Origin: an uncultured Thermoplasmatales archaeon
GTDB taxonomy: Archaea > Thermoplasmatota > E2 > UBA202 > JdFR-43
Assembly: GCA_964572575.1 (NCBI GenBank)
Contig: CAZNGK010000001.1
Span: forward strand, 1-32,175
Reading direction: 5' to 3'
DNA: 32,175 bases
The position numbers were made by a program, and so were the translations under genes. Position 1 is the stretch's first letter; each line of letters opens with the position of its first letter. Positions 1,171-18,496 of this stretch are shown here, piece after piece. Under the pieces are notes generated by a model. It was given only the letters and a program-made list of their open reading frames with translations, did not search any database and had not been told where the DNA came from.

Positions 1171-1926
1171 TTAATATTCATCCAATCTGGTATTTGGAAT
1201 TTTATTCAACCGCTTTTCCGCAATTTCAACCCATTTAGGATTTATTTCTATACCAATGTAGTGGCGATTTAATTTCCTTGCCACATAGCATGTAGTTCCA
1301 ACACCGCAAAATGGATCTAAAACAATATCTTCTTCATAACTCCACCATCTTACTAATGGCTCTATTAATGCGATTGGTTTTTGGGTTGGATGTTTGGTTC
1401 TCTCTCTCCCTTGGCATATCGGCGTAGAAATTACATCATGCATCTGTCCCTCTCTCCAGTTGTAATGATGCCCCGCCCCATGATTTTTTGTTGCTATGAT
1501 AAATGCTTCCCATGAGTTCATAAACTTTACCTTTCTCGCCTGTGGAACAGGATTGGTTTTATGCCATACTCCTATATGCCTTACTTTCATCTTTAAATCA
1601 TCCTCTAAAAATCTGCACATATCTGATATATCCCTCTTTTTTAAGAATGTAATAAGCACACCATTATCTTTCAGTTTTTCATAAACAACAGGAATCCAAT
1701 CTTTCCAGTGAATGCCAACCATAACTTCTCTATGCTCTACCAACCCTTTGTGAATATCTGTTGTCTTTCCAAATTTCCCACCATTCCTAACTATTACAGA
1801 TGGTTCTTCCTCAATTCCATATGGTGGATCTGTTAAACATAAGTCAATGCTTTTATCTGGCAATTCTGGAAGAAGTTTCAATGCATCCCCCTCTATTACT
1901 CTATCAATAAAGTTTTCAATACTCAT
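1171..1926 (-). CDS. DNA methyltransferase, beta-class (N6-adenine or N4-cytosine), DPPY type
   Basis: N-terminal motif IV LTDPPYGI and C-terminal motif I LDPFCGVGTT. This IV-then-I order is typical of beta-class amino-MTases. The track start 1935 is GTG; ATG 1926 (MSIENF) is preferred. Confidence 0.9.
   Translation of the reverse strand: MSIENFIDRVIEGDALKLLPELPDKSIDLCLTDPPYGIEEEPSVIVRNGGKFGKTTDIHKGLVEHREVMVGIHWKDWIPVVYEKLKDNGVLITFLKKRDISDMCRFLEDDLKMKVRHIGVWHKTNPVPQARKVKFMNSWEAFIIATKNHGAGHHYNWREGQMHDVISTPICQGRERTKHPTQKPIALIEPLVRWWSYEEDIVLDPFCGVGTTCYVARKLNRHYIGIEINPKWVEIAEKRLNKIPNTRLDEY
1233..1323. repeat. 91-bp perfect inverted repeat, copy 1 (partner 18317-18407)
   Basis: The reverse complement of 1233-1323 is base-for-base identical to 18317-18407. 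It lies in the motif-I region of the MTase gene. Confidence 0.95.
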
Positions 1927-1953
1927 ATATAGCACCTTGTCTTTCCATAATGG

Positions 1954-1989
1954 AAATACAATTTTATTATTTAAGGATTTTGTTTAAGG
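1954..1989 (-). promoter_or_regulatory. Family-A promoter module, copy A3
   Basis: aaatacaattttattatttaaggattttgtttaagg lies upstream of the MTase gene 1171-1926. Confidence 0.6.
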
Positions 1990-2036
1990 TTAATTCAATT
2001 TAGAAAAGATTTTTAACCATAAGTTTCTTTATATAT

Positions 2037-2354
2037 GTGGAATTAGAGAATTTCATTAAGGATGAAATAAGCAGGATGTTTGAAAGAAAGAGAAAATTTG
2101 TCAATGTAGAGGCAAAACTCGATGTTGGATTTTTAGATCACCAACCAATAGAGGGAGAAAGTGTTTATGGAGAAGCATACCCCTTTGAAAAGCCACCAAG
2201 GGTTAGAATAGATATTTTCCCAATAGATGCAACAAAAAAGGATATTGAGGCAACAATATGCCATGAATTGGTGCATATTAAACATCCAGAATTGGAACAT
2301 AGCAAAGAATTTGAAAAGAAGGTAAAGGAGTGCATAACAGAATCTTTTATGTAA
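2037..2354 (+). CDS. small HExxH zinc metallopeptidase-like protein (SprT/DUF45-like)
   Basis: ICHELVHIKHPELEH contains HExxH plus a downstream His. GTG start. Confidence 0.55.
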   Translation: MELENFIKDEISRMFERKRKFVNVEAKLDVGFLDHQPIEGESVYGEAYPFEKPPRVRIDIFPIDATKKDIEATICHELVHIKHPELEHSKEFEKKVKECITESFM

Positions 2355-2365
2355 CTGCCCTTCAC

Positions 2366-2415
2366 AGAATGCAAAATTTCAACGAAAACCCCCCACTTTT
2401 TGTGTTAAATTTGCT
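2366..2415 (+). repeat. lox/FRT-like site 1: arm L1 (23 nt), core ccccccac, arm R1 (19 nt)
   Basis: agaatgcaaaatttcaacgaaaa-ccccccac-tttttgtgttaaatttgct. The arms are imperfect inverted repeats of each other. The partner site is at 8587-8636. Confidence 0.7.
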
Positions 2416-2457
2416 GTTTCATTAAATCATAAAAATAAGAAATAGGGAAAGGGTTGT

Positions 2458-2697
2458 TTATATGAACATTGGGTCAAATTTCTTTTCCTCTTTTTCATTG
2501 ATCAAAACTAAATCTTCTTCCTCCAATGCATAGAGATCTATTATCTTCTCCTTTTCCTTCTGTATTTCCTTATCCTCCATTGCCTTCTCAATGATTTTAT
2601 TTGCCAAATTCACTGCCTCGCTGGGGTTATCTGTTTTCACATGAAGGAACATGCTAACTATCATTTCAGGTTCTTTTTCCTTTCTCTTTCCATTCAT
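2458..2697 (-). CDS. hypothetical acidic protein (79 aa)
   Basis: Last ORF of the coupled minus-strand chain; its start overlaps the stop of the upstream ORF. Confidence 0.5.
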   Translation of the reverse strand: MNGKRKEKEPEMIVSMFLHVKTDNPSEAVNLANKIIEKAMEDKEIQKEKEKIIDLYALEEEDLVLINEKEEKKFDPMFI

Positions 2698-2930
2698 TTT
2701 ATCTCCTCCTTTTCCTCAATATGGTTTATTAGATCCTGTATTATTTCTGTAAAAGGCAATATGAATGATTTTCTGAAATCATCTATATCAATGCATATTC
2801 CTTCGCTATTGTATGTCATTGTAAATTTTCTTCTCTTGCCTTTTATTTCTGCTTCCCCATTTCCAATATGCCCTACCAAATGTATTATGGTAACCGCATT
2901 TTCTGGATAATCTTTCTCTTTCCACTTCAT
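2694..2930 (-). CDS. hypothetical protein (78 aa)
   Basis: ATGA-type overlap at both ends. The SD (GGAGGGA) is embedded in the upstream gene tail. Confidence 0.55.
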   Translation of the reverse strand: MKWKEKDYPENAVTIIHLVGHIGNGEAEIKGKRRKFTMTYNSEGICIDIDDFRKSFILPFTEIIQDLINHIEEKEEIK

Positions 2931-3130
2931 TCTATTCCCTCCATTGCTAAATCCGAAAGATAACTATTTATGGCATGGACTATACCTTCAAAATCGTTTA
3001 TTTTCTGCAATTCCTCTAACAAGTCAAAATTATCGCAATCCTCTATTTTAAAGAATAGTCCTACCTCGTCTTTATGTTCATTAAACCATTCCCGCAATAT
3101 CCTTTTTTGCTTCTTTGTTAATCCCTTCAT
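2927..3130 (-). CDS. hypothetical protein (67 aa)
   Basis: Preceded by the junction AAATGGAGGGATGAAAAATGAAGG (SD inside the upstream stop region). Confidence 0.55.
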   Translation of the reverse strand: MKGLTKKQKRILREWFNEHKDEVGLFFKIEDCDNFDLLEELQKINDFEGIVHAINSYLSDLAMEGIE

Positions 3131-3133
3131 TTT

Positions 3134-3430
3134 TCATCCCTCCATTTTCTTTTCAATTTCTTTTATCTTTTTATTTATCTCCCTCAATTGCTTTAGCAAT
3201 GTTAATTTCTTTTTATGTAACTCTATGAATATAGGATCTATCTGTGGTTTGCATTTCATTGAGTTTATCGCTTTCTCAATATCATTGCCATAATTGTTTG
3301 TTAATGCTAACTGGAATTTTCCACATTTATGGCATTGCCCTGTAAATCTCAATGGAGATAGGCATAATGTTGGATTTTTTTCAGGATCTAAAACATCCTT
3401 TGAATTAACAACCGCTACCTTCATTTTCAT
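3134..3430 (-). CDS. hypothetical protein (98 aa), possible Cys4 metal site
   Basis: Its Cys residues include a CHKC pair (CLSP...QCHKCGKF...KCKP). Preceded by a junction nearly identical to the one at 3123-3148. Confidence 0.55.
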   Translation of the reverse strand: MKMKVAVVNSKDVLDPEKNPTLCLSPLRFTGQCHKCGKFQLALTNNYGNDIEKAINSMKCKPQIDPIFIELHKKKLTLLKQLREINKKIKEIEKKMEG

Positions 3431-3738
3431 CCCTCCATTTCGCTTACATCATCTATAACAAATTCACAAATTTCGTTCAATGTTTCATACAGTTTATCTT
3501 TTGCTTCGTTTTCATCTCTTGCCTCAATTCTGCCGTGAACTTCAAAATAAAATACTTTATACTTTTCTCTTTCCAATCGTTCCCTTTCTTCATATATATT
3601 ATACTCTGTTCCACATTGTGGGCATACTATTATGGTTTTGCTGGAAAAATCCTTGAATTGCCAATCATCCCCAACAGGACAACCACATTCCCTGCATTTT
3701 TCTATTTCTAATTCATTTAATATATCAATTGCCTTCAT
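3427..3738 (-). CDS. zinc-ribbon protein (about 103 aa)
   Basis: CRECGC...CPQCG. The track start 3828 overlaps the upstream gene by 88 nt. ATG 3738 follows the upstream stop (3741-3743) and the SD GGAGGGG. Confidence 0.6.
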   Translation of the reverse strand: MKAIDILNELEIEKCRECGCPVGDDWQFKDFSSKTIIVCPQCGTEYNIYEERERLEREKYKVFYFEVHGRIEARDENEAKDKLYETLNEICEFVIDDVSEMEG

Positions 3739-3740
3739 CT

Positions 3741-4295
3741 TTACCCCTCCATTTCCATTATTACATTTCCTTCCATATCCATGATTACATATGCTTCCTT
3801 TCCGCATGTGCATTTCTCTTGCCCGCATTCAGAACATATCATTATGCCTTCGCTTTCAATTTCATTCAATGCATTTATGAAATCTGCCAATTCACTTTCA
3901 TATATTCCAAGATCCATTACCTTTTCCAGTTGTTCTTTGCATTCATTGTATATTTTTTCTGCTCTCCTGCTATCACTGTTATATCCATACTCACCGCAAA
4001 ACTCCTCAAAATCCATGCTTCCTGCCCATGCATCCTCCAAGAATGATTTAAAAGCCAAAAGCATATCCATGAGATCCATTGTTGTTTTTCCCTTTTCCCA
4101 GTTCGCATTTGAATCATAGAATTTGAATGATTTTGTTATTGCCCCGTTCTCAAATTCCCTTTTTACTGTTATCTCAAATACATTGTGCATCATGTTATCA
4201 TCGCTATTAGGGAATCCCTCTATTTCTCCTATGTGCTTCGCTGTTATTTCAAATTCCTTATCCAGTATTGTTAATTTTGCTCTTACCATTTCCAT
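3741..4295 (-). CDS. hypothetical protein (184 aa) with C-terminal CxxC...CxC
   Basis: Long intact ORF, coupled start (GGAGGAATGGAAATGG), C-terminal CSECGQEKCTCG. Confidence 0.6.
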   Translation of the reverse strand: MEMVRAKLTILDKEFEITAKHIGEIEGFPNSDDNMMHNVFEITVKREFENGAITKSFKFYDSNANWEKGKTTMDLMDMLLAFKSFLEDAWAGSMDFEEFCGEYGYNSDSRRAEKIYNECKEQLEKVMDLGIYESELADFINALNEIESEGIMICSECGQEKCTCGKEAYVIMDMEGNVIMEMEG

Positions 4296-4534
4296 TCCTC
4301 CTGCTCTAATTCTTTTAGCATTTTCATTGCATTTTCATAGTTATCATATTCAAATATCGCAAAAATGCTATCACTATCTATCCTTGTAAATCTGCCATTA
4401 TGTTGTTCTATGAATGCCCTTGTTTTTTCATGCTCTTTTTCATCAAGGGCATATGCCATTACTTCAATTTTATATGTTTTGCTACCATCTTCGTTCTCAT
4501 ACTCGTAAAATTCGCTTATTACTTTCTCATTCAT
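4283..4534 (-). CDS. hypothetical protein (83 aa)
   Basis: Start overlaps the upstream stop by 8 nt, with the SD AAAGGGGGGAT upstream. Confidence 0.55.
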   Translation of the reverse strand: MNEKVISEFYEYENEDGSKTYKIEVMAYALDEKEHEKTRAFIEQHNGRFTRIDSDSIFAIFEYDNYENAMKMLKELEQEEWKW

Positions 4535-4877
4535 TGCGATCCCCCCTTTCCATTTCCATCTTTATAATTACTGCATCTGTCAGCCATATGCCTCTTAATG
4601 CCTTAAAGATATTCGCCAGTTGCCAGTTATCACCCTTGTAATCTACTAATTCATCCTCAAGTATGTTTTTGAATTCATCTATTGCCTCGCCATCATTTTT
4701 AGCAAACTGTATGAATTTTAGCATTGCCATGCCTATTGCATGTTCCTTGTCATATCCGCCCTGTTCTGCATATTTCTCCGCTTCATAGAGTGCAAATTCG
4801 CCCGCTACAGGAGTTCCCGTATTTGCCCCGCATGGTGCATCTATCTCATACAATCTTCTTATTACCTTTTCAAACAT
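4527..4877 (-). CDS. hypothetical protein (116 aa)
   Basis: ATGA overlap with the upstream gene at 4875-4879, with the SD GGGGGTGAT. Confidence 0.55.
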   Translation of the reverse strand: MFEKVIRRLYEIDAPCGANTGTPVAGEFALYEAEKYAEQGGYDKEHAIGMAMLKFIQFAKNDGEAIDEFKNILEDELVDYKGDNWQLANIFKALRGIWLTDAVIIKMEMERGDRNE

Positions 4878-5449
4878 CAGTTATCACCCCCTATTATGCT
4901 TATTAAATCTTCTTTACTTATGTTGTATTTCTCCATCATTGCTTCTATCTCATATTTTATCATCTGTTTTATATCAACCTTTATGATCCCCTCCCTTTCG
5001 GCATAGTATTTCGCTGTTTTAATCAATGTATTTATTACTTTACTGCCATTGCTTTCATTTTTATAAAACTGCTTCATTGCTGTTTTTATATCATCATCTA
5101 TCGCATCCATCTCCTTCCTGTTGTTTATGAATGTTATTGATGCTATCATATTTAGATCATTGTTTATTGCATAATACAATGTATAACTGCATCTGCTATT
5201 TTTCCATGATGAGAAATCATCAAGCACAATGTAAAACTCCCCATTTCTAAATGAATAAAGTCCATGCCCTCTACTGCCCTCAATCGGAGAAAGAAAATCC
5301 AAGCCATTTTTTGTTATCCCTGCTATCCAGTATTTTCCTGCACATTTTGTATTTCTTACAATGTCCATCATTTTTTCAAATTCTGTGGGGATTACACCTT
5401 CAGCACCGCCCCCACTCACGGTGCATATCTTATTTCCTTCCATTTCCAT
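4877..5449 (-). CDS. hypothetical protein (190 aa), first gene of the transcription unit
   Basis: ATG 5449 lies about 30 bp downstream of the A4 TATA box. Confidence 0.6.
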   Translation of the reverse strand: MEMEGNKICTVSGGGAEGVIPTEFEKMMDIVRNTKCAGKYWIAGITKNGLDFLSPIEGSRGHGLYSFRNGEFYIVLDDFSSWKNSRCSYTLYYAINNDLNMIASITFINNRKEMDAIDDDIKTAMKQFYKNESNGSKVINTLIKTAKYYAEREGIIKVDIKQMIKYEIEAMMEKYNISKEDLISIIGGDN

Positions 5450-5465
5450 ATCACCCCAATATAGT

Positions 5466-5500
5466 AATACAAAAAAAGTATTTAAAGTTTTTGTTTAAAG
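5466..5500 (-). promoter_or_regulatory. Family-A promoter module, copy A4
   Basis: aatacaaaaaaagtatttaaagtttttgtttaaag. Together with the start of the downstream gene it is near-identical over about 65 bp to 7105-7165. Confidence 0.7.
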
Positions 5501-5566
5501 TTATTAACATACTATAAACTATTGTTTTGTATATATAAAAAATATAAGAGAAGGGAAAGGATCGCA

Positions 5567-5677
5567 TTACAGATTTTCAATGATTTTCCTTGCATCATCT
5601 TCAGTTAATAATGCCTCAATCAGTGTTGGAGATCTTATGCATATGGGATTTAATCCTGCCATCTCCAATGCTTTCAT
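5567..5677 (-). CDS. micro-ORF (36 aa), below the ORF-track cutoff
   Basis: MKALEMAGLNPICIRSPTLIEALLTEDDARKIIENL. TAATG overlap with the preceding micro-ORF. Confidence 0.35.
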   Translation of the reverse strand: MKALEMAGLNPICIRSPTLIEALLTEDDARKIIENL

Positions 5678-5763
5678 TAGTTTTTCTGTAAATATTGTAT
5701 TTGCATAGAAAAATGGGTATATGCCCCATATAGCATTTTCTTTAATCTTTCCTTATAACTCAT
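5677..5763 (-). CDS. micro-ORF (28 aa), below the ORF-track cutoff
   Basis: A strong SD AAGGAGGGAT sits 4 nt upstream of ATG 5763 (the SD ends at 5768), immediately after the PCNA stop (5775-5777). Confidence 0.4.
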   Translation of the reverse strand: MSYKERLKKMLYGAYTHFSMQIQYLQKN

Positions 5764-5774
5764 GCTATCCCTCC

Positions 5775-7112
5775 TTAATATTCTATTCTTGGTGCAAGAA
5801 GGAAATATCCCTGTATATCTCCAGTTTTAAAGTGTATTTTCATTGGATGATCTTTTGCCATCTCTATTTTTATTTTATCAACCTTTAGGGAATACAGTAA
5901 ATCAATGAATCCTTTAAGGTAATCTCCTATGTCATACATGCTCTTAATTTCCTCCTTATCATCCATGATATTTATTTCATCGCATTCATCTTTTTTGAAT
6001 ATTGCCTTTATGTGATCCACATCATTTTCTCCATATACAATTACTTTATCATGCTTGATCTCTATTTTACAATAATCGCTTATCTCATTTATGCTTCTTA
6101 TTGTTTTTCTCAATTTCTTTACTGGCAATATCGCTGATCCCTTAAATTCCATTGATGGTTCTTTTTCATATCCTATTTCATCCTTATCTAATAATGCTAT
6201 CGCAAAAGAAATATTCTCATGTTTTATGAATACTTTATCATCCTCTATCCTATCTATTGTTATTTCATCATTGCTTTCATAATGTTTTAAGAATTTCTTT
6301 ACTTTATTAATATCTATGGCAAATTCAGTATTTACTGAATTTTCATTTATTTCATCAGGCAATAGAGAAATATTCATCATGGCAACATGCCCAGGATCAA
6401 CAAAAATGGAGTTTATAACTGGCAATTCCATTTCCATTTCTCCATCTCCATGCTTTATTGTTTTTATGCCTATTATTGCTTCATCTCTTAAATATTCTAT
6501 GAGTTTAAAGAAATTCTCCATTTCCTTCTTATTTGTTTTTGCATTTATGATTATAGGCATCCAAGATTTTTCCAATTCCTCTATGTATTCTATGAAATGC
6601 CCAAAATTTTCATTTAATTCATCTTCTTTTATATCATTGCCTATCCTGAATATCCTATGCCTTATCAGTTTTATATAACATCTATGGCATAACTCCCTAT
6701 TTTCAAATGCCTTATGTATTGCTGAATATCTATGTATATTATAGGCATCCTCTATGCTTATTATAGTTTTTTTACAATCTTCACATAGCAAATTGAATGC
6801 CCTTTCCTCAATCTTCATCCTTTCCATTTCTCCATCATAGATCCTTTTATCAATTTCCTTATTTTCATCCTTTTTCTCTATCATTGCCCTCCATTCATCT
6901 ATCTGATTTTCATTGCCATCATTGTTAGCATTCAGGATCTCAAAAAATTCTTTACTGAATTTTACAGTTTTGCCATCATCCAGCATTATTGTATATTTGC
7001 TTGATCCATTTTCAGGCAATGCCTGTATTGTTCCAGTTTTGCATTCATATACTCCATCCACAAATTTTATTCTATCTCCTATCCTATACATCATCTCTAT
7101 CTCCATTTCCAT
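5775..7112 (-). CDS. PCNA (sliding clamp) homologue with a roughly 190 aa N-terminal extension (KOW-like barrel plus CxxC...CxxC)
   Basis: The C-terminal 255 aa or so align by eye along the whole length of archaeal PCNA (DEAxxxI, VDPGHVAMMNISL, KSMYDIGDYL, terminal FLLAPRIEY). The track start 7133 is TTG inside the promoter, so ATG 7112 is preferred. Confidence 0.8.
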   Translation of the reverse strand: MEMEIEMMYRIGDRIKFVDGVYECKTGTIQALPENGSSKYTIMLDDGKTVKFSKEFFEILNANNDGNENQIDEWRAMIEKKDENKEIDKRIYDGEMERMKIEERAFNLLCEDCKKTIISIEDAYNIHRYSAIHKAFENRELCHRCYIKLIRHRIFRIGNDIKEDELNENFGHFIEYIEELEKSWMPIIINAKTNKKEMENFFKLIEYLRDEAIIGIKTIKHGDGEMEMELPVINSIFVDPGHVAMMNISLLPDEINENSVNTEFAIDINKVKKFLKHYESNDEITIDRIEDDKVFIKHENISFAIALLDKDEIGYEKEPSMEFKGSAILPVKKLRKTIRSINEISDYCKIEIKHDKVIVYGENDVDHIKAIFKKDECDEINIMDDKEEIKSMYDIGDYLKGFIDLLYSLKVDKIKIEMAKDHPMKIHFKTGDIQGYFLLAPRIEY

Positions 7113-7126
7113 ATCACCAATATAGT

Positions 7127-7161
7127 AATACAAAAAAAGTATTTAAAGTTTTTGTTTAAAA
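7127..7161 (-). promoter_or_regulatory. Family-A promoter module, copy A5
   Basis: aatacaaaaaaagtatttaaagtttttgtttaaaa, TATA about 30 bp upstream of ATG 7112. Confidence 0.7.
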
Positions 7162-7219
7162 TTATTGTTTAAGAATGCCTATCTTTTTAATTTATTCCTC
7201 TATATAGGAATGAAAGAAA

Positions 7220-7247
7220 TTTTCATGTAATATTCATTACATGAAAA
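7220..7247. promoter_or_regulatory. perfect 12-bp-stem hairpin/palindrome (terminator or operator)
   Basis: ttttcatgtaat-attc-attacatgaaaa lies between the end of gene 7330-7701 and promoter A5. Confidence 0.5.
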
Positions 7248-7329
7248 AGAAAATGCAATAGGAAAAAAATTTCAAAATTTGATCCAAAAGGTTTATGCCA
7301 AGCAGATTCGGATGTTCTGAATAAGTTTT

Positions 7330-7701
7330 TTATATTCTTTCAACAATCAAATCTAATTCATTTACTTCTTTAAATTCATCTATGGTCAGAGGAATTTTAG
7401 ATGATACTTTCTTTTCAAATACTTCTATTGCTACCTTTTTTCCCTTTTTATTAAATACAAAAAAAGTATTATATTTATTTATTAACTTACCATTTTTTCC
7501 TTTCATCTGTTTTTGTTCTTTTCTACACCAACCAAGTGATCTGAATTTATCTAAAATTCTATATGCCTGACCGTATGGTATATTCAATTTTTTCGCAACA
7601 TCATTTGGCGATAATACCCAATCCTTTTTGAATGCAAGAAATAAAGTTAAATCCCCATTCCCTAATCCAAGTATTTCTTTAAGAAATTTAAATGTCTCCA
7701 T
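7330..7701 (-). CDS. winged-helix DNA-binding protein (123 aa)
   Basis: SPNDVAKKLNIPYGQAYRILDKFRSLGW looks like an HTH plus wing. The ATG is about 21 bp downstream of the A6 TATA. Confidence 0.65.
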   Translation of the reverse strand: METFKFLKEILGLGNGDLTLFLAFKKDWVLSPNDVAKKLNIPYGQAYRILDKFRSLGWCRKEQKQMKGKNGKLINKYNTFFVFNKKGKKVAIEVFEKKVSSKIPLTIDEFKEVNELDLIVERI

Positions 7702-7708
7702 ATTTCAT

Positions 7709-7733
7709 AATACAAAAAAAGTATTTAAGGTTT
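7709..7733 (-). promoter_or_regulatory. Family-A promoter module, copy A6
   Basis: aatacaaaaaaagtatttaaggttt. Confidence 0.65.
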
Positions 7734-7886
7734 AATGCGAAAGTTTACACTCCTTATTGCTCTTGGGCTTTTCTCTGGGGCTTTTGATAGAGGTATTTGT
7801 ATATACAAAACAATATATGAAAAAATGATTTAACAAATTAAACAATAGACAATAAGACAAAATTTATTTACAAATTCTATTGCCAA

Positions 7887-8534
7887 TCAATGTTTCTGTG
7901 GAAATACCAATTTTATTTTTGGAGGATCTGTGTCATATCCTCTTATGATCCTGCTCAAATTGGTATATTCACATGGGTATTCTATTGAAACAACAGATAT
8001 TCCAGATTTTTCAATCATGCCCGCAAGTATTGGAGATAAAATATAATCTCTATAAATCATGTTGGCACAAAATCTTATTCCACACATCTTTTTACAATGT
8101 TTATCAAATACCGTTAGTATATCAACTCCACCAATCTGAAATACTTCATGTCCATAATTTAGTATGAATCTCTCAACATTGCTATTCTCATTTATTGCCA
8201 TTCTCACAAGTTTATTCCTCAAATCATCCATTGTTTTTACAAATTCTTTCCTTTGCTTATTATATGTCCTTATCGCAAATCCACTTCCATCTGGCAACTC
8301 AACAATATCTTCCCTGGGAACTAAAAGGAAATCCTGCCTAAAATACTCACCTTCATCATCGCTATAATAGATTTTGGATGATAACCTTACATCACTATTG
8401 TAAATGTATTTAGGACCAATAATACCGTTTGGGATGGCAATATCGCACAATCTTATTATTCTAAATGGATGTTTTTCTTTGCTGATTTCCTTCAATTTTA
8501 ATTTCGCCGAAAGCAGTAACAACTTCTGGTCCAT
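7887..8534 (-). CDS. hypothetical protein (215 aa)
   Basis: Long intact ORF with no motif I can name. Confidence 0.6.
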   Translation of the reverse strand: MDQKLLLLSAKLKLKEISKEKHPFRIIRLCDIAIPNGIIGPKYIYNSDVRLSSKIYYSDDEGEYFRQDFLLVPREDIVELPDGSGFAIRTYNKQRKEFVKTMDDLRNKLVRMAINENSNVERFILNYGHEVFQIGGVDILTVFDKHCKKMCGIRFCANMIYRDYILSPILAGMIEKSGISVVSIEYPCEYTNLSRIIRGYDTDPPKIKLVFPQKH

Positions 8535-8586
8535 GTTAGTAAATTACTATAAAATATATATCTTTTACTTAACGGTTTAACAAAAT

Positions 8587-8636
8587 AGCAAATTTTACAC
8601 GGAAACCCCCCACTTTTCGTTGAAATTTTGCATTCT
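8587..8636 (+). repeat. lox/FRT-like site 2: arm L2 (19 nt), core ccccccac, arm R2 (23 nt)
   Basis: agcaaattttacacggaaa-ccccccac-ttttcgttgaaattttgcattct. R2 is the exact reverse complement of L1. L2 matches the reverse complement of R1 at 16 of 19 positions. The core has the same orientation as in site 1. Confidence 0.7.
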
Positions 8637-8681
8637 ATTGCATCTGAATGCTAACATATAACACAATAAGTTAAGATAGAC

Positions 8682-8781
8682 GGGATGGCAGGGATGTCAA
8701 GGATATTTTATATTTTAACTATAATCATGATAATCATAATGAAATTAAAGTAAGAAAAAACCCTACCATCCCTGACAACCC
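8682..8781. repeat. imperfect G/C-rich inverted repeat (21 nt arms, 15/21 pairing) around a 58-bp AT-rich spacer
   Basis: gggatggcagggatgtcaagg ... ccctaccatccctgacaaccc, with direct repeats caataagtta at 8665-8674 and 8810-8819 outside it. Confidence 0.5.
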
Positions 8782-9816: not shown

Positions 9817-9858
9817 TGTGGTATAAACCCGCAAGTAATTAAAATATTTTCTAAAATA

Positions 9859-9884
9859 TTCCCCAAAAGGGGAAAATTTAAAAA
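9859..9884 (+). promoter_or_regulatory. Family-B module B1: palindrome TTCCCCAAAAGGGGAA fused to the TATA-like AAATTTAAAAA
   Basis: The first T of the palindrome is 48 nt upstream of ATG 9907, and the architecture matches B2-B5. Confidence 0.7.
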
Positions 9885-9906
9885 CCAATTCTATATTTAT
9901 AAATCA

Positions 9907-10242: not shown

Positions 10243-10243
10243 G

Positions 10244-11029: not shown

Positions 11030-11031
11030 AT

Positions 11032-11475
11032 ATGGGGATAAAAGAACCATTCTGCGTTAATTTCGTAAAGACAAACTGCCCATACTGTAAGATAGGGGAT
11101 AGAATAATAAACCAGGGGTTTTTGAAAAATTATCTCCGATTGAACCACAATTTTACAATAATAAACATAAAGAAATATTATGGTGCAATGAAAATATGGT
11201 GGGATAAGGTATCTCCCAACATGCTTGGAGTTGATAGAACTGCTACGCCTTCATGGGTTTTCTTTGAAAATAAAAGAAGAATGTTTGGAAGACCAAAAAA
11301 AATATTCATATTGTCCAGAAAAAGCACTGGATATAAAATAAGAGATTTAAGAGATCAGGTTCTTGCATTAAAAGACAGCATGGAGGAGTGGTTGTGGGAA
11401 ACATATCCAGAGTATATGGGAATGAAAAGCGAATTAATGCATATAGGAGAGGAGGAGTATATGTATGTCATCTAA
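11032..11475 (+). CDS. glutaredoxin/thioredoxin-fold-like protein with a CPYC motif
   Basis: FVKTNCPYCK is the classic glutaredoxin active-site context. The C-terminal extension is unassigned. Confidence 0.5.
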   Translation: MGIKEPFCVNFVKTNCPYCKIGDRIINQGFLKNYLRLNHNFTIINIKKYYGAMKIWWDKVSPNMLGVDRTATPSWVFFENKRRMFGRPKKIFILSRKSTGYKIRDLRDQVLALKDSMEEWLWETYPEYMGMKSELMHIGEEEYMYVI

Positions 11476-12220
11476 AAAATATAAATTAAAAGCGGTTGAA
11501 GGCATAAGTTATGAACAGATGACAGATTCGCTTGATAATCTTTACAGGTATGGCAGGATAGTAAGAAATGTTTATGGTGTTGAGGTTTCAGAACCATTTA
11601 CACAAATAGGTGCAGAAGTATTGAATGTAAAGTTAGATGAGGAGGCAACAGTAACTGATTACATCATATATGGAAAAGAAATAATTGAATACCCAAAACA
11701 ACAGGAATTTGGTGAATTATTTGATGGAATAAACCCGCATTATCAACTTATTCATCAATTATTGAGAGATCATGACAGAATATCAGAAAAAGCATTGATA
11801 AGATTATACACAGAAAAATATAGATTTTTACCAAATAACAGAAGTGGCATAAACTATTTAAAAGAAATACTTGAAAGAATGAGATTGAACGGTTATTTAC
11901 TTCTTGAAATAGAAAGGGAAGGATTATCAAGAATAATTTGGTATAAAATTGGCAGAGGTATCAGAACAAGGAACAAAAGAAGGTTGGAAGCAAAGGAAGG
12001 TTATGATCCTGTTATGCTTGCCATATATGACTTTTTAGATAATTTTGTTGAAGGTGCTACATTCAATGATATTTTCAGATATATGGTTAATGGAATAGCA
12101 TGGCTTGAAACGATAAATGATCTTGAAAGATATTTAAATTTGATGGTAACTCTTGGGAATATAGTGGAAGTAAATGGAATGTATAGGGTAAAAGAGCCGA
12201 TAAAACCTTTCCAGCATTGA
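11465..12220 (+). CDS. hypothetical protein (251 aa), possible wHTH repeats
   Basis: Overlaps the upstream gene by 11 nt. Intact ORF. Confidence 0.55.
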   Translation: MSSKKYKLKAVEGISYEQMTDSLDNLYRYGRIVRNVYGVEVSEPFTQIGAEVLNVKLDEEATVTDYIIYGKEIIEYPKQQEFGELFDGINPHYQLIHQLLRDHDRISEKALIRLYTEKYRFLPNNRSGINYLKEILERMRLNGYLLLEIEREGLSRIIWYKIGRGIRTRNKRRLEAKEGYDPVMLAIYDFLDNFVEGATFNDIFRYMVNGIAWLETINDLERYLNLMVTLGNIVEVNGMYRVKEPIKPFQH

Positions 12221-12225
12221 TTATA

Positions 12226-12252
12226 TTCCCTAAAAAGGGAAAATTTATATAT
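12226..12252 (+). promoter_or_regulatory. Family-B module B2: TTCCCTAAAAAGGGAA plus TATA AATTTATATAT
   Basis: 47 nt from the first T to ATG 12273, directly upstream of the micro-protein/radical-SAM operon. Confidence 0.7.
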
Positions 12253-12272
12253 GTTGCAGTAATTATTATTTG

Positions 12273-12452
12273 ATGCCGATAACGGTGCAGGATGCGGTTA
12301 CTTTAAAAAACATTCCTAAATCTTTATGTGATTTACTTGGAGGAATACACACAAGAGAGGGAGATTGCATTGCTGTCATAGAATTAAGCGATGAAAATCC
12401 AAACATAGCAAAATTGATAAAATTGGAAAAAAGGAGGGGTCTGCGTGAATGA
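12273..12452 (+). CDS. two-Cys micro-protein paralogue 1 (59 aa), candidate rSAM substrate
   Basis: PKSLCDLLGG...GDCIAV, ends EKRRGLRE, aligns with the next two ORFs. Confidence 0.55.
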   Translation: MPITVQDAVTLKNIPKSLCDLLGGIHTREGDCIAVIELSDENPNIAKLIKLEKRRGLRE

Positions 12453-12633
12453 AAATAAAAAAATAAAGAGAGTATATGTTACAAGATTTAAGGATTTAGA
12501 TCCAACAATCTGTGAGGAAAAACTAAAGGGTAAATTAAATGGCGATGTTTGTGAAGTCAATGTCATTGAATATGAGGATGGAGAAAAGGAGTTTGTTTCA
12601 TCAGATGAAGTAGAGAAAAGGGGGTTGAGATAA
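12445..12633 (+). CDS. two-Cys micro-protein paralogue 2 (62 aa)
   Basis: The GTG start is 5 nt after the SD AAGGAGGGG and overlaps the upstream stop. PTICEEKLKG...GDVCEV, ends EKRGLR. Confidence 0.55.
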   Translation: MNENKKIKRVYVTRFKDLDPTICEEKLKGKLNGDVCEVNVIEYEDGEKEFVSSDEVEKRGLR

Positions 12634-12830
12634 TGTTGAAAAGAAAAGGTGATAGGAAAATAGTTGTGATTGATGGAAATCAGATAAGCCCTACTGTGTG
12701 CGAGGATGTGCTTGAGGGAACTTTTGATAACAAGTCAAATAAGTGCTATGTGGCAAGGGAAAAGATAGATGAAAACAAGTCAATACTTGAGAAATTGGAT
12801 ATTGAGATAATAGAAGGAAATGAAGAATGA
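12633..12830 (+). CDS. two-Cys micro-protein paralogue 3 (65 aa)
   Basis: TAATG overlap, SD AAGGGGG. PTVCEDVLEG...NKCYV. Confidence 0.55.
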   Translation: MLKRKGDRKIVVIDGNQISPTVCEDVLEGTFDNKSNKCYVAREKIDENKSILEKLDIEIIEGNEE

Positions 12831-13831
12831 GCAAGTTACAACTGTTCATCTTCCTAACAAACATATGTAATTTGAGATGTAAGGGATGTCCAGTATTTAA
12901 GGATATACACAGAAGTTTAACATTAAAAGATATAGAAAAAATAGCAACAACATGGGATTACTCAAGAGTTGCACTTCTTGGTGGAGAGCCATATGCATAC
13001 AAAGATTTGAATAAAGTTGTTGATATGTTCAACAAGCCAGTTACAATATACACCAATGGAACTATGTTGAGAGAGGATAACATTATTGAAAATGTTGTAT
13101 ATGCTGTTTCTCTTGATTCTTTAAACCAAAAAATTAATGATACCATAAGAGGTCAGGGCGTTCATAAGAAAGTGATGCATGCTTTGAATACATTGAGAAA
13201 AAATAAGGAGAAAAAGAATATTAAAGAAATCATAATAAGAACAACATATAACTCAAGAAATTATAGCGATATTTTCAATTTAATTGAGTTTGCTGAAAAA
13301 AATGAATTTGGATTGGCATTACATCCAAGAATTGGTTGGGAAGTGCAGGATGAAGGGATATACGCTGGTCTTACCGCAGAGCAACAATTGAATTTGTTTA
13401 GAGAAATTATCAAACATGATAAGATGGTGATCCTAACACCCCATTTTTTCCAGTGGATTGGGAATAAACATTATAGATGTCCTGCTGGAGAATTTAGATT
13501 GGCAATAAGAGAAAACGGAATGGTAAAGCCATGTCAGTGGGGTAGTTATATAATAGGAAGTATAAGAAATCATGAATTTGACTATTTTAGACAGAAAGGA
13601 ATAGAATATAATAGAGAATTTGTTCAAAAGAGGATTCCAAAATCATGCTTATTTTGTGAAAGGGTTATGCAGTGTCATGGAGGATGTTTATTAATAAACG
13701 ATACAGTAAGATGCCCGTTAAGATATAATGGCGGATCATATAATATAAGAAGATTTTATGGAAATAGTGATATAAGTAGATTTAAGGTTGGATTGAAAAG
13801 GTTGGGAAGAATTGGTTTTAGTGGATGTTAG
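12827..13831 (+). CDS. radical SAM enzyme with a C-terminal SPASM domain (peptide-maturase type)
   Basis: CNLRCKGC (Cx3Cx2C) at residues 14-21 and a GGEP motif. Complete 7-Cys SPASM pattern: CPAGEFRLAIRENGMVKPC (Cx12Gx4C), then CLFCERVMQCHGGC (Cx2Cx5Cx3C), then ...RC. ATGA overlap with paralogue 3. Confidence 0.9.
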   Translation: MSKLQLFIFLTNICNLRCKGCPVFKDIHRSLTLKDIEKIATTWDYSRVALLGGEPYAYKDLNKVVDMFNKPVTIYTNGTMLREDNIIENVVYAVSLDSLNQKINDTIRGQGVHKKVMHALNTLRKNKEKKNIKEIIIRTTYNSRNYSDIFNLIEFAEKNEFGLALHPRIGWEVQDEGIYAGLTAEQQLNLFREIIKHDKMVILTPHFFQWIGNKHYRCPAGEFRLAIRENGMVKPCQWGSYIIGSIRNHEFDYFRQKGIEYNREFVQKRIPKSCLFCERVMQCHGGCLLINDTVRCPLRYNGGSYNIRRFYGNSDISRFKVGLKRLGRIGFSGC

Positions 13832-14733
13832 ATAAATTCCTCACTTTCTTCCTCCTCTTTATCAATTTCCTCAATTTTTTCTTTTACAAGATCCCATATT
13901 TTATCCCTGAATTTGGGATTTTTTTCAATTGCTTTTTCTATAACCTTTATTAATTCACTTTCCTTCATTTCCTCCGCCGATTTGCCAAGAAATTCACCAA
14001 GATATTTTTGATATATCTTTTCTCTTAATTTGTCATTTTCAATTGCACTTAACATATCATATACTACTCCAATAGTTTCACTATATAGATCAGCAAATTT
14101 TTCACCGCTTTTATCGGTTTTAATAGCACCTACCTTCGATTTTAATACCTTTATTTTTTTCACTACAACATCTCTTATGAATGCAATCTTTTCATCATCG
14201 GTATAATAATTTTTAATAAATTCAGCAAGTTTTTCAAGAGCAACAGTTAAATCAACATGCAGTTCCTGACCTCTTAACATATCTCTTTCAATTTCATCAA
14301 GATAACCTACTATTTTTTTAACAGAATCTGAAAAGTTACCATAAGATATTTTATAAAATCTGATCGGGAAATATATGCCATAATCTGATAGCAGAGAAAC
14401 TATCTCTTTATATCTTGAATAAAATGTTATGATAAAATTATCATCATAGCCATTGTTTTCAACCAATTTTTTCAATGTTAGTAATTTGGATTTAATCTCA
14501 TTGATGTATTGGCTATCATAACCATTTATTGTCATGTATGTTAATATATCACCAGCAAACCCATTGTAGTATTTTCTAAATTTTTCCATATCGCCTTCGT
14601 TCAATATTCTTGGTATCCACTCAACATAAAAATTTATCCTTCTTAATAAACTCCACTTTTCGCCTTCTTTTTCTATGAGTAACTTCATTTGTGCTGGCTT
14701 TTCAAATTCTCTTACTTTTTCTATTGCTTCCAC
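13828..14733 (-). CDS. hypothetical protein (about 300 aa), helical, acidic C-terminus
   Basis: The track ORF extends to 14790 through promoter module B3. GTG 14733 lies exactly 47 nt from the palindrome, as in B2 and B4. An alternative ATG is at 14688. Confidence 0.55.
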   Translation of the reverse strand: MEAIEKVREFEKPAQMKLLIEKEGEKWSLLRRINFYVEWIPRILNEGDMEKFRKYYNGFAGDILTYMTINGYDSQYINEIKSKLLTLKKLVENNGYDDNFIITFYSRYKEIVSLLSDYGIYFPIRFYKISYGNFSDSVKKIVGYLDEIERDMLRGQELHVDLTVALEKLAEFIKNYYTDDEKIAFIRDVVVKKIKVLKSKVGAIKTDKSGEKFADLYSETIGVVYDMLSAIENDKLREKIYQKYLGEFLGKSAEEMKESELIKVIEKAIEKNPKFRDKIWDLVKEKIEEIDKEEEESEEFI

Positions 14734-14751
14734 ACTATGTAAATATGAACA

Positions 14752-14780
14752 ATAATAAAAAATTTCCCTTTTTGGGGAAG
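14752..14780 (-). promoter_or_regulatory. Family-B module B3 (minus strand: TTCCCCAAAAAGGGAA plus ATTTTTTATT)
   Basis: Same palindrome-plus-TATA architecture as the other B copies. Confidence 0.6.
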
Positions 14781-14816
14781 TGAAAAACATTTAAAAACAG
14801 TAGTAAAATTGTTATT

Positions 14817-15134
14817 ATGCAACCCAAAATCATAAAATTAGAAAAAATAAGGCATACACTGTTACAAAAGGCAAAAAAGTTTTCAGTTAAATGGGATGAT
14901 AAGAATGTAAAGATATTCATAAAAGGTTGTCTTGAAGATGGCGGAGTTCCAATGTTCAAAGATAGATTTGCTGGAGAAAGATTTGAGGTTGATGGAAAAC
15001 CAGCAGTGTTGGGAATCTGTTATGGTGGAAAGGGAAGATGGAAGGATTCACAATGGTTTAAAGATGTTCCAGAAGAAGATATTGATGTTATTGAAAGCAT
15101 GACAGGAGAGTGGAAAGAATTTCTTTCTGAATAA
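14817..15134 (+). CDS. hypothetical protein (105 aa)
   Basis: Intact ORF divergent from 13828-14733. Confidence 0.5.
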   Translation: MQPKIIKLEKIRHTLLQKAKKFSVKWDDKNVKIFIKGCLEDGGVPMFKDRFAGERFEVDGKPAVLGICYGGKGRWKDSQWFKDVPEEDIDVIESMTGEWKEFLSE

Positions 15135-15171
15135 AAAAGAAAATATTTAATATATCTTTAAATATAATATT

Positions 15172-15483
15172 ATGCCAGATATTGGTGGTGATTTAAAAGG
15201 AGTTAAAGAAATAACCGCATGTGCCAGTAGAACAACCGATCTTTATTTTGATTTGGATCAAGTGAATTTCGGTTTTGGAATAAATACCATTCTTGATAAA
15301 TTTGAAAAATGGAGGGAAATATGCAAAATAAGAAGTGATGATGTATTCGTTCCTAAAAAGTTAATCAAAGATGCTATCAGAGATTATAAAGAGGGAAAGC
15401 ATGATCTTGTGAAAGGACAACTTGAAACTGCACAGAAGCAAATAATGAGGGAAGCATTGATAAAAATATCAAGAGCAAAATGA
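15172..15483 (+). CDS. hypothetical protein (103 aa)
   Basis: TATA-like tatttaatat about 25 bp upstream. Intact ORF. Confidence 0.55.
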   Translation: MPDIGGDLKGVKEITACASRTTDLYFDLDQVNFGFGINTILDKFEKWREICKIRSDDVFVPKKLIKDAIRDYKEGKHDLVKGQLETAQKQIMREALIKISRAK

Positions 15484-15812
15484 ATGGCGATTACATATTG
15501 CCAAAAATCTTTAATCCAACAGCACTTAAAGTAATAGAATTTTTTTTAAGAAAAAATGAGGAGAATGGTGAGGGCAAGGAATATAATCTGTCAAAATTTG
15601 CTGAAGAATCTGGAATATCAAAAGGTGCATTGCACAATGCAATAAAAATACTGGAGGAATATGGTATAATAACATCAAAAGAAAAGCCAGTTAATGGAGG
15701 ATATGCAAAAATAATTGAAATTGATTGGGATAATGAAATGGTATATCTTCTGATGAACACATTTTCCGCACTTATTAAGTTTATTGATGCATATAACTGT
15801 TCAAAAAAATGA
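15480..15812 (+). CDS. winged-helix transcription regulator (110 aa)
   Basis: NLSKFAEESGISKGALHNAIKILEEYGIITSKE. ATGA overlap with the upstream gene. Confidence 0.65.
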   Translation: MNGDYILPKIFNPTALKVIEFFLRKNEENGEGKEYNLSKFAEESGISKGALHNAIKILEEYGIITSKEKPVNGGYAKIIEIDWDNEMVYLLMNTFSALIKFIDAYNCSKK

Positions 15813-15854
15813 ACGCTTCCAATTATTTATAAACCCTTTTTATATTACATAATC

Positions 15855-16157
15855 ATGAGATCGCAAGCAAGAGAAATGGGGTTTGAACCTGTGTTTTATA
15901 GAACAAGGAAACCAGGGAAGTTTTCACCGAAATCCAAGATGGTGTTCCCGCAGAAAGGACCAAGATTTACACATAAGACAAGCCAGCAGAAAAAGATCGC
16001 AGAGGCAGGAAGGTTCTGCGGTGCTATAATAAAGAAGCAGGACCGCTTTGATGGACCAGAGGGCGTGGAAAAGAGAAGGATGGCGATGGCTGATTGCATT
16101 AGGGAACAGTTTGGACACGATCCCATCTACGGACCAGAGGGTTGGTGGAAGGACTAA
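15855..16157 (+). CDS. basic hypothetical protein (100 aa) in a locally GC-rich island
   Basis: TATA tatttataaa 20-25 bp upstream and a T-rich tract downstream. Its composition differs clearly from its neighbours, so an RNA gene is not excluded. Confidence 0.45.
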   Translation: MRSQAREMGFEPVFYRTRKPGKFSPKSKMVFPQKGPRFTHKTSQQKKIAEAGRFCGAIIKKQDRFDGPEGVEKRRMAMADCIREQFGHDPIYGPEGWWKD

Positions 16158-16202
16158 CCAAACACAGGTTCTAAAAAATCCTCTTTCCCCAATTTTTTAT
16201 TT

Positions 16203-16301
16203 TTATTTACAGAATGAGTATCCACATTTTTTACAATAATAACATACTCTACTCTTGTTTCTTTTCTTTGTCATAGTTTTACCACAACTGGGGCATTTCA
16301 T
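16203..16301 (-). CDS. 32-aa zinc-ribbon micro-protein, below the ORF-track cutoff
   Basis: MKCPSCGKT...CYYCKKCG. ATGA overlap with the stop of 16298-16573. Confidence 0.45.
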   Translation of the reverse strand: MKCPSCGKTMTKKRNKSRVCYYCKKCGYSFCK

Positions 16302-16573
16302 CCTATCAATTCCTCAACTTCTTTCTCAAAATTATCACTGTAACCTATAATACATTTCTTTATTTTTTTATCATCAACCTCGCATATGGTTGGCATCATC
16401 GGAGTTTCAATTGAATCAAGTATATCTGGATTCTCATAATTTTTTAGTTCGGAAAAATCTTTAGCAAATTCTATTTCAATTCCTCTTTCTTCAGCAATTT
16501 TTTCAACAATTGGTAGTGCCTTTTTACATGGCTCACAATCTTCGTCGCCTATAAATAATATCTTTTTACCCAT
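16298..16573 (-). CDS. thioredoxin/glutaredoxin-fold redox protein (CEPC active site)
   Basis: 91 aa. FIGDEDCEPCKKALP followed by a cis-Pro-like MMPTI. The ATG is 21 bp downstream of the A7 TATA. Confidence 0.7.
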   Translation of the reverse strand: MGKKILFIGDEDCEPCKKALPIVEKIAEERGIEIEFAKDFSELKNYENPDILDSIETPMMPTICEVDDKKIKKCIIGYSDNFEKEVEELIG

Positions 16574-16579
16574 AAAGTT

Positions 16580-16602
16580 AAATACAATTTTATTATTTAA
16601 AG
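16580..16602 (-). promoter_or_regulatory. Family-A promoter module, copy A7
   Basis: aaatacaattttattatttaaag. Confidence 0.6.
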
Positions 16603-17163
16603 TTGATGATTGAGGTTACATGCAAATACTGTGGTTCTACGAATGTTGTAAAGGCGGGTAAAGTGAAATTAAAGAGTGGAAATAAAACAAGATATTACTG
16701 TAAGGATTGTAAAAAATACTTTACTGTTATGGATAGAAAAATAAAAGATAAAATATTGAATCTGTTGGATGAGGAAAAAACAATAAGTGATCTGAAAGAT
16801 GAAGTTAAAGCACACCACATGACTATAAGAGCATGTTTAAAGGAATTGATAAATGAAGGAAATGTAAAGGTCTATGAAAAGGATGGTAAAAAGTTTTATG
16901 TGAAAAATGATTATAAGAGCAAAAATGAAGTAAAAAATGAAGTAAAGAAGACAAATAATGTTCAATTACAACTTTCAAAAATTGTTACATTTGTAAAAAG
17001 CAAAGGATATGCAACTCTTGATGAAATAAAAGAATTATTGAATATAGAAAATGTTGCACTGGTTAAAAGAATGATATTGTTGCTTGTAAATGAAGGTATT
17101 CTATCAATAAAGGTTAGTGGCTTGATATTTAGAAAGGAATATGTTGTATGGAAGGGAGAGTAA
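16603..17163 (+). CDS. Zn-ribbon plus tandem wHTH DNA-binding protein
   Basis: N-terminal CKYCGS...YYCKDCKKYF, then two wHTH-like segments (TIRACLKELINEGNV, LVKRMILLLVNEGIL). Confidence 0.65.
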   Translation: MMIEVTCKYCGSTNVVKAGKVKLKSGNKTRYYCKDCKKYFTVMDRKIKDKILNLLDEEKTISDLKDEVKAHHMTIRACLKELINEGNVKVYEKDGKKFYVKNDYKSKNEVKNEVKKTNNVQLQLSKIVTFVKSKGYATLDEIKELLNIENVALVKRMILLLVNEGILSIKVSGLIFRKEYVVWKGE

Positions 17164-17179
17164 TGTAAAACTTTTACAT
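17163..17179. promoter_or_regulatory. 8-bp-arm palindrome atgtaaaa-c-ttttacat abutting the TATA CCTTAAATA (17186-17194)
   Basis: Lies between the stop at 17161-17163 and the MTase ATG 17216. Shares the 12-mer ttacatgaaaaa with the hairpin at 7220-7247. Confidence 0.5.
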
Positions 17180-17215
17180 GAAAAACCTTAAATATTCTTT
17201 TTATATTCTTATCAT

Positions 17216-18496
17216 ATGGCATGTGAATATGAACTTATAGAATCCTTTCTTGATAAAATTGTTCAAGGAGATGCAAAAGATATGCTAAAACAAATTCCAG
17301 ATAACTCAATAGATTGCATCATTACTTCACCGCCTTATTGGGGATTGAGAGATTATGGAAAAGAAACAAATACAATATGGGAAGATGGCTGGTATGGGCA
17401 ACTTGGACATGAGCCAACTCTGGATATGTATATTGATCATCTTTTAGAAATTACAAAAGAATTAAAAAGAGTATTAAAACCTACAGGTGTAATGTGGTGG
17501 AATCATGGAGATAGTTATGGTAGATTTGGGGGGCATCATGGTGGTGAAGATAGAAAACATGCTGGAGGAAAGAATTTGTGGGGAACATTACCAAAACAAC
17601 AGATTTCAGTGCCTGAAAAGTGTTTAAATCTTCAAAACTACCGTTTAATCCTTCGCATGATTGACGAACAGGGCTGGATTCTCCGCAACATCATAATTTG
17701 GTATAAACCAAATCATATGCCAAGTAGCGTTAAAGACAGATTCACAAATGCATACGAGCCAGTATTCATGCTTACTAAAAGCAAAAAATATTGGTTTGAT
17801 TTGGATGCAGTAAGAGTGCCACACAAAATAGATAGTATAAAAAGATCAGCAAGGGCGAGAAAATCAAAAAAATTAGATGCAAAGCAATACTCAACATCTT
17901 ATAAAAATGAATATATCGGCTATGAAAATTTATGGGAAAAATTTCAAAGAGGAGAGTTGAGAGGAGTTCATCCTTTTGGCAAAAATCCTGGTGATGTATG
18001 GATAATTACAACAGAACCATTTCCTGATTCTCATTTTGCTGTTTTTCCAACAAAATTGGTAAAGCCAATGATAAAAGCAGGATGCCCCCAATGGGTATGC
18101 AAGAAATGTGGAAGGGCAAGAGAAAGGATTGTAAAAAATCCTGAAAGAGATTATTCACAAGATTTAAATACCAAAGATAAGCATAAATGGAAAATAAAGG
18201 ATGATAAGTTACAAACAACTACACAACTTCATAGGGATGGTGGCGGAGTGTATTATAAAGGTGTTACCGTTGGCTGGACAGATTGCGGATGCGAGGCAGG
18301 ATGGGATGCTGGCATAGTTTTAGATCCATTTTGCGGTGTTGGAACTACATGCTATGTGGCAAGGAAATTAAATCGCCACTACATTGGTATAGAAATAAAT
18401 CCTAAATATGTAGAAATGGCACAAAAAAGGTTGGCAAAAATACCTGCAAGATTAGATAAGTTTTTAAAAATGAAGGGTGATGCACATGCTGAATAA
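17216..18496 (+). CDS. DNA methyltransferase, beta-class, SPPY type (N4-cytosine or N6-adenine) with a Cys-rich insert
   Basis: ITSPPYWG (motif IV), C-terminal LDPFCGVGTT (motif I), and the insert CPQWVCKKCG...CGC. Confidence 0.9.
   Translation: MACEYELIESFLDKIVQGDAKDMLKQIPDNSIDCIITSPPYWGLRDYGKETNTIWEDGWYGQLGHEPTLDMYIDHLLEITKELKRVLKPTGVMWWNHGDSYGRFGGHHGGEDRKHAGGKNLWGTLPKQQISVPEKCLNLQNYRLILRMIDEQGWILRNIIIWYKPNHMPSSVKDRFTNAYEPVFMLTKSKKYWFDLDAVRVPHKIDSIKRSARARKSKKLDAKQYSTSYKNEYIGYENLWEKFQRGELRGVHPFGKNPGDVWIITTEPFPDSHFAVFPTKLVKPMIKAGCPQWVCKKCGRARERIVKNPERDYSQDLNTKDKHKWKIKDDKLQTTTQLHRDGGGVYYKGVTVGWTDCGCEAGWDAGIVLDPFCGVGTTCYVARKLNRHYIGIEINPKYVEMAQKRLAKIPARLDKFLKMKGDAHAE
18317..18407. repeat. 91-bp perfect inverted repeat, copy 2 (partner 1233-1323)
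   Basis: Verified base by base. Identity drops sharply outside the tract. Confidence 0.95.

Follow-up and report, generated by a model that had tools for sequence, protein, structure and literature searches.

Short-patch gene conversion between short, moderately diverged DNAs has been documented in the archaeon Sulfolobus acidocaldarius (PMC3367456), and inverted repeats carried by related genes mediate the inversion of the DNA between them both in pneumococcus, where hsdS repeats of 85 bp and 298 bp lie next to the recombinase PsrA (PMC7096588), and in yeast, where homogenized gene pairs in inverted orientation underlie a 24-kb flip/flop region (PMC9731477). Here we compare with these systems a stretch of 32,175 nucleotides (hereafter the window) of contig C1 (CAZNGK010000001.1) from the metagenome-assembled genome of an uncultured Thermoplasmata archaeon. 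The EF-2 encoded by this genome has 86-94% identity to proteins that carry the label Thermoplasmata or Thermoplasmatales, ex4484_30 among them. The region looks like a mobile element, and two strongly diverged DNA methyltransferase genes in it, A and B, carry one and the same 91-bp patch as a perfect inverted repeat. With a probability of about 0.75, we regard this patch as the footprint of one recent, short, non-reciprocal ectopic gene conversion in which A was the donor and B the recipient.

Both genes encode predicted beta-class N6/N4 DNA methyltransferases. Gene A (1171..1935, minus strand) specifies a protein of 254 aa and gene B (17216..18496, plus strand) one of 426 aa, which score 132.7 and 166.2 bits, respectively, with the beta-class family PF01555 (curated cut-off 26.7) and which both match phrog_67. 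As in other PF01555 enzymes (CcrM, DpnA/M1.HpyAVI, M.RsrI and M.PvuII), motif IV, which reads DPPY in A and SPPY in B, is N-terminal and is followed by the recognition region and by motif I, present as a C-terminal FCGVG. A is probably an N6-adenine enzyme, with CcrM (6pbd, 3e-28) and DpnA-type adenine methyltransferases as its best solved relatives, and B probably an N4-cytosine enzyme, its best solved relative being a DNA cytosine-N4 methyltransferase (8s9n, 1e-19). Outside the patch the N-terminal halves of the two proteins share ∼29% identity, and BLASTP of A against B aligned nothing significant across the central part of B, which has long inserts; the reading frames of both genes are intact. 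B differs from the PF01555 enzymes named above by a Cys-rich insert, a typical trait of its subfamily that none of the solved structures matched by B contains. This insert (CPQWVCKKCG...WTDCGC, 18080-18310, corresponding to B residues ∼289-365) lies just before motif I, is conserved in the B subfamily (P0003-P0016), is lacking in A, and is probably a zinc-binding module.

The patch occupies 1233..1323 on the minus strand within A, the presumed donor copy, and 18317..18407 on the plus strand within B, the presumed recipient copy. Both the repeat finder and direct reading confirmed that the former is the reverse complement of the latter at 91/91 positions, and copy-specific mismatches adjoin the patch at both ends (1232 vs 18408 and 1324 vs 18316). 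The perfect 91-bp inverted repeat which a sequence-only reading of this DNA had reported is thus borne out, and the gene tails that it had described beyond the repeat (WVEIAEKRLNKIP and YVEMAQKRLAKIP) as well as the differing DPPY and SPPY motifs match its description. Wider arms of 131 nt (1196-1326 and 18314-18444) are 90% complementary. In the whole genome (1.74 Mb, 274 contigs) the 91-mer occurs twice, both times on contig C1 and 17 kb apart, and the interval between the copies (1324..18316, 16,993 bp) holds the promoters and the catalytic and recognition parts of both methyltransferase genes. Lying in frame in A and in B, the patch encodes (V)LDPFCGVGTTCYVARKLNRHYIGIEINPK in both, which comprises motif I (FxGxG), the next helix and the IGIE strand, and which aligns with CcrM residues 219-249, i.e. 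the strand, FxGxG loop, helix and IGIE strand of the cofactor-binding unit. The motif I unit binds S-adenosylmethionine and sets neither the target base nor the target sequence. Past the patch, A ends in WVEIAEKRLNKIPNTRLDEY (1171..1232, minus strand) and B in YVEMAQKRLAKIPARLDKFLKMKGDAHAE (18408..18496, plus strand), tails that are native to the A and the B lineage, respectively.

Chance is excluded as the source of this identity. A and B are 57% identical over 702 codon-aligned nucleotides, and when their matched and mismatched sites were shuffled 20,000 times the longest identical run averaged 10.8 nucleotides and never exceeded 29, compared with 91 in the real alignment (P ≤ 5e-5), so that the run shared by these paralogues significantly exceeds the length expected from their divergence as a whole. 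The probability of 91 straight matches is ∼1e-19 at 62% identity, the level in the adjacent C-terminal block, and still only ∼1e-11 at 76% identity, the level between A-type and B-type relatives within the motif. The possibility that the patch is merely a universally conserved motif was rejected, and so was constraint on the protein as the cause of the identity, as members of the family in 100 related genomes typically show 40-55% protein identity there and B-type relatives differ from the patch at 22-38 of the 91 nucleotides.

A scan of the degenerate codon pattern of the patch over 241 million metagenome records returned six contigs, three of them A-type (L037, L038 and L041) and three B-type (L039, L040 and L042), the latter being similar to P0005. 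Among the A-type contigs, identity to the patch is 88/91 in L037, 87/91 in L038 and 81/91 in L041. In L037 and L038 the patch is continuous with flanks that are 87-89% identical to A over 150 nt upstream, and the genes downstream encode proteins 81-86% and 79-81% identical to the products of the 154-aa and 110-aa open reading frames (ORFs) of the window; because of this upstream identity and the two downstream genes in common, L037 and L038 can be regarded as true orthologues of A. The B-type relatives match the patch at 53-69 of 91 positions, with 67-69/91 in L039, L040 and L042 and 53/91 in P0003, which is the closest relative of B among 5.8 billion proteins (69% identity over the alignable part).

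Over the next 54 nt, however, B is closest to the B-type relatives, with 35-37/54 identical positions to L022, L039, L040, L042 and L043 as against 28/54 to the A clade, whereas the A tail matches L037 and L038 at 48/54 positions and the B tail at 28/54. The comparison of B with P0003 places the break at the patch itself: third-codon identity is 0.20-0.27 exactly over B residues 364-403, corresponding to the patch, as against 0.5-0.7 where the middle of the gene is well conserved, while amino-acid identity across the patch stays at 0.73-0.77. Tract and flanks are thus incongruent in their ancestry, B joining the A clade inside the patch (81-91/91) and the B-type genes in the tail. From these alignments, the patch is shown to be of A-lineage and the flanks of B to be of B-lineage ancestry, so that the patch stands out in B as sequence of foreign origin. 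The exchange looks non-reciprocal as well, in that the tract of A keeps A-lineage sequence and A contains no B-type sequence, and the conflict between patch and flanks therefore argues for a non-reciprocal conversion from A to B. Both copies lie on contig C1 of a single assembly, which places donor and recipient in the same molecule; as there are no differences from the co-resident A gene and three to four from external A alleles, a co-resident donor and a very recent event would follow. The recent gene-conversion or recombination tract that the sequence-only reading had proposed is therefore upheld by the phylogenetic incongruence of patch and flanks, which in addition gives it a direction.

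No B-type gene with an A-type patch was found in any of three collections (metagenome records, GTDB genomes and IMG/VR), in which relatives were few and mostly on short contigs. Neither the exact 91-mer nor the degenerate codon pattern had a match in IMG/VR, and the pattern had none in the GTDB genomes. When 100 related genomes were searched with B, the best match was 36% identical, so that no related element is present there, and the related-locus search with A, both in viral contigs and in genomes, gave distant matches only.

As to how such a patch might have been copied, A and B appear to have been most alike already in the motif I segment, which forms the S-adenosylmethionine-binding strand-loop-helix-strand, and exact runs of 17-22 nt are common to A-type and B-type genes at the distal end of the patch. 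Microhomology of this kind could have anchored strand invasion or template switching and given rise to a heteroduplex, from which short-patch repair would then have copied 91 nt of A into B. An N4-cytosine-type enzyme would tolerate the unit of an N6-adenine-type enzyme, both frames staying intact, because this unit binds the cofactor and does not choose the target. As a by-product, a perfect 91-bp inverted repeat would have been left behind, which could occasionally support a homologous inversion of 17 kb. In this scheme we infer the molecular route, the recency of the event (from zero differences) and the neutrality of the exchange.

The locus resembles other cases of ectopic conversion, including those in S. 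acidocaldarius (PMC3367456), in that a sharply bounded tract of perfect identity lies in diverged paralogues while the donor is unchanged, in that tract and flanks differ in ancestry, and in that the tract is short and has a local microhomology anchor. It differs from them in the unusual divergence of A and B (57% DNA identity) and in their probably different chemistries (N6-adenine and N4-cytosine), as well as in its uncultured Thermoplasmata host, where the A/B event is read from sequence alone. S. acidocaldarius belongs to a different archaeal phylum from this host, and the comparison is one of analogy only.

Some observations weigh against a single conversion from A to B. The amino acids of the patch (TTCYVARKL.RHYIGIE) score slightly better with the B-family profile than with a profile of the A family at large (log2 odds -4 to -9), which hints, weakly and not decisively, at older traffic from B to A in an ancestor of the A clade, or at repeated homogenization. 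It is also possible that a close but unsampled B orthologue already carried the patch, as those closest relatives of B for which DNA is available have 53-69% protein identity. Furthermore, the sequence of the patch rests on a single metagenome assembly.

A conversion could also have drawn on a near-identical A-type allele on another copy of the element or in another strain, rather than on the co-resident A gene. Such an origin would suit the mosaic nature of these elements, as exemplified by L021, which is 97-100% identical to window 1900-2270 and 80-90% identical through gene A and then loses homology at ∼1220-1245. But co-resident A matches the patch of B at 91/91 positions, and the nearest external A-type alleles match it at 88/91 and 87/91; the simplest donor is thus the same molecule, and we consider an external one improbable.

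The same metagenome contig (L021/L041, Ga0164318_10410212), compared with window 1095-2280, also carries the gene neighbouring A, with a product 98.7% identical to that of 2037-2354. The point at which its homology to the window ends coincides with the outer edge of the 91-bp patch, and because of this, these elements seem to have recombined at motif I repeatedly.

A different explanation, and one that we judge just as improbable as an external donor, is that repeated homogenization or selection maintains the patch as the site of crossovers by which a switch flips the 17-kb core. Such a flip would be carried out by host homologous recombination or by the adjacent tyrosine recombinase, and after it the integrase operon and the genes downstream of A would each be read from the promoter of the other methyltransferase gene. 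A perfect inverted repeat indeed brackets the 17-kb segment. The gene for the tyrosine recombinase (integrase; 18477..19547, plus strand; PF02899 and PF00589; phrog_1 integrase, 4e-23) begins 70 bp past the right copy, its start overlapping the end of B with the stop codon; with a tRNA gene nearby, it has the appearance of a usual integrase gene. The amino-acid profile, with its hint at earlier traffic between the A and B families, would also fit, and so would the two known inversion systems. Like the present locus, the pneumococcal cod/ivr hsdS locus with PsrA has inverted repeats of tens to hundreds of base pairs in genes of a methylation system and an adjacent tyrosine recombinase gene (PMC7096588), and on Saccharomyces chromosome XIV inverted related genes, homogenized by conversion, bracket a multigene block of ∼20 kb that is able to re-invert (PMC9731477). 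In pneumococcus, however, inversion reshuffles target-recognition domains and thereby changes methylation specificity, whereas in A and B neither the recognition nor the catalytic part would be separated from its promoter, the segment is made up of 17 kb of unrelated genes instead of a compact cassette, and no isomers were seen in the contigs compared. Likewise, the yeast repeat measures 4 kb and is continually homogenized across species, whereas the repeat described here measures 91 bp and is known from one genome, with no inversion polymorphism documented.

The organization of the locus itself also speaks against a switch. A and B both point outwards from the interval, and their promoters, motifs IV and recognition regions all lie inside it, so that a flip would swap nothing but tails of 20 and 29 residues. 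The specificity of the boundary genes would thus be unchanged by inversion, and although it is conceivable that the promoter of A would come to read into the integrase in place of that of B, nothing supports this. The left junction is spanned by three related contigs (L037, L038 and L021), each in the parental arrangement with A-type sequence on both sides; each tail matches the relatives of its own family; and hybrid A/B genes were found neither among the best hits of two protein searches nor in four pattern scans. In the comparison of methyltransferase pairs in related elements that the sequence-only reading had suggested, none of 14 related loci >5 kb, from relatives that are few and mostly represented by short contigs, had a comparable identity tract. 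Moreover, contig C1 runs unbroken through both copies, which suggests one dominant orientation. With related contigs parental, hybrids lacking and short tails alone to be swapped, the idea of a maintained repeat that drives a 17-kb inversion, which the sequence-only reading had offered as its alternative, is left unsupported.

Even less probable is the full form of this idea, namely that the partial identity of A and B is preserved for the sake of flipping the 17-kb core and thereby changing the methyltransferase promoter from which the integrase operon is driven, with repeated conversion refreshing the crossover site; if true, it would amount to a homology-based orientation switch in an archaeal (Thermoplasmata) mobile element. 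As known repeats of similar size invert DNA in pneumococcus and yeast, an occasional inversion via the patch is possible by analogy with them, and nothing indicates that it occurs or is of importance.

We consider it very unlikely that the identity or the arrangement of the two copies is an artefact of assembly. The metagenome-assembled genome is fragmented (274 contigs), and the last 55 nt of contig C120 (L044; 4933-4987) are the same as window 1-55, an overlap of contig ends which suggests that the assembly was probably built on a de Bruijn graph with k = 55, shorter than the patch. The pairing of left and right flanks would then depend on how the assembler resolved the repeat, as k-mers cannot fix the joining of flanks. 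With k = 55, however, every base of the patch would share a 55-mer with a copy-specific flanking base, and both copies would thus be supported by reads; furthermore, both frames are intact and the tails match their own families, which indicates that the assembly shows the ancestral orientation. Least likely of all is that selection preserves the nucleotides of the patch for an embedded non-coding role (e.g. as a nuclease target, an RNA element or a site bound by a protein), for which there is no direct support: the patch is indeed 96-97% conserved in A orthologues as against 87-89% for the flanks, but the amino-acid motif alone accounts for this, B-type relatives vary freely at synonymous sites of the patch (53-69/91), and the mRNAs of A and B carry the patch in the same sense, which makes their mutual pairing impossible.

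Taken as a conversion from A to B, the patch represents a clean, direction-resolved case of very short-patch conversion between strongly diverged paralogues in a mobile element of an uncultured archaeon. It suggests that the cofactor-binding unit of beta-class methyltransferases is exchangeable between enzymes of probably different chemistries, and that motif I acts as a homology island at which these elements recombine. Such patches can mislead phylogenetic trees based on motif I, and the inverted repeats resulting from them may confuse assemblers. The finding is well explained, is of low novelty and raises no new question, being an ordinary recombination footprint in an unusual host, and nothing points to a role of the patch as a switch.

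Among the relatives of B, the closest one, P0003 (707 aa; L043 177-2300), has two large insertions relative to B. One of these, possibly an intein or a homing endonuclease inserted into the methyltransferase, separates the GVMFWN.GD block from the QNYRLILRMIDEQGW block and gives a faint match to LAGLIDADG_3.

The putative mobile element has many small ORFs arranged in two divergent arms, with reused TATA-type promoter modules (family D1), and encodes a radical-SAM/SPASM enzyme (12827-13831); near the integrase lies a tRNA-Met gene (20239..20315, minus strand). From the overlap between C120 and the window, the element would continue to the left, with at least 4.9 kb of minus-strand genes. The description of the 17-kb interval as most of the element, given by the sequence-only reading, is therefore uncertain. 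A 343-aa protein encoded on C120 gave weak matches to RecA/UvsX/DnaC-like ATPases. Megablast of window 1-20400 against a phage database gave no match, and a related-locus search of viral contigs with a 452-aa protein and with the C120 ATPase found nothing.

Across 24 genomes of the same family, the tRNA-Met gene is the sole conserved part of 20200-24200, the genes to its right not being conserved, and operator-like palindromes are found on both sides of it (9858-9897, 12217-12249, 22184-22223 and 26163-26202). Because of these two features, the tRNA gene may lie inside a variable region and not at the border of the element. No convincing att-type duplication of the tRNA end was found in the genome. 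To the right of the tRNA gene, window 22513-23449 has a second copy of ∼0.9 kb, 85% identical, on contig C109 of the same genome (4733-5651), and C109 has further, weaker matches; the C109 copy may represent a related element or a paralogous gene cluster.

Inside the 17-kb interval, two sites at 2366-2414 and 8588-8636 form a perfectly complementary pair of 23 nt that overlaps a direct repeat of 44 nt with 80% identity. These repeats have a CCCCCC core with AAAATTT/AAATTTT arms and bracket ∼6.2 kb. A module of ∼40 nt with TTTAAATA-like boxes was found directly upstream of minus-strand genes at 1-42, 1138-1179, 1957-1998, 5468-5509, 7129-7170 and 16583-16624, and looks like an archaeal TATA/BRE promoter family.

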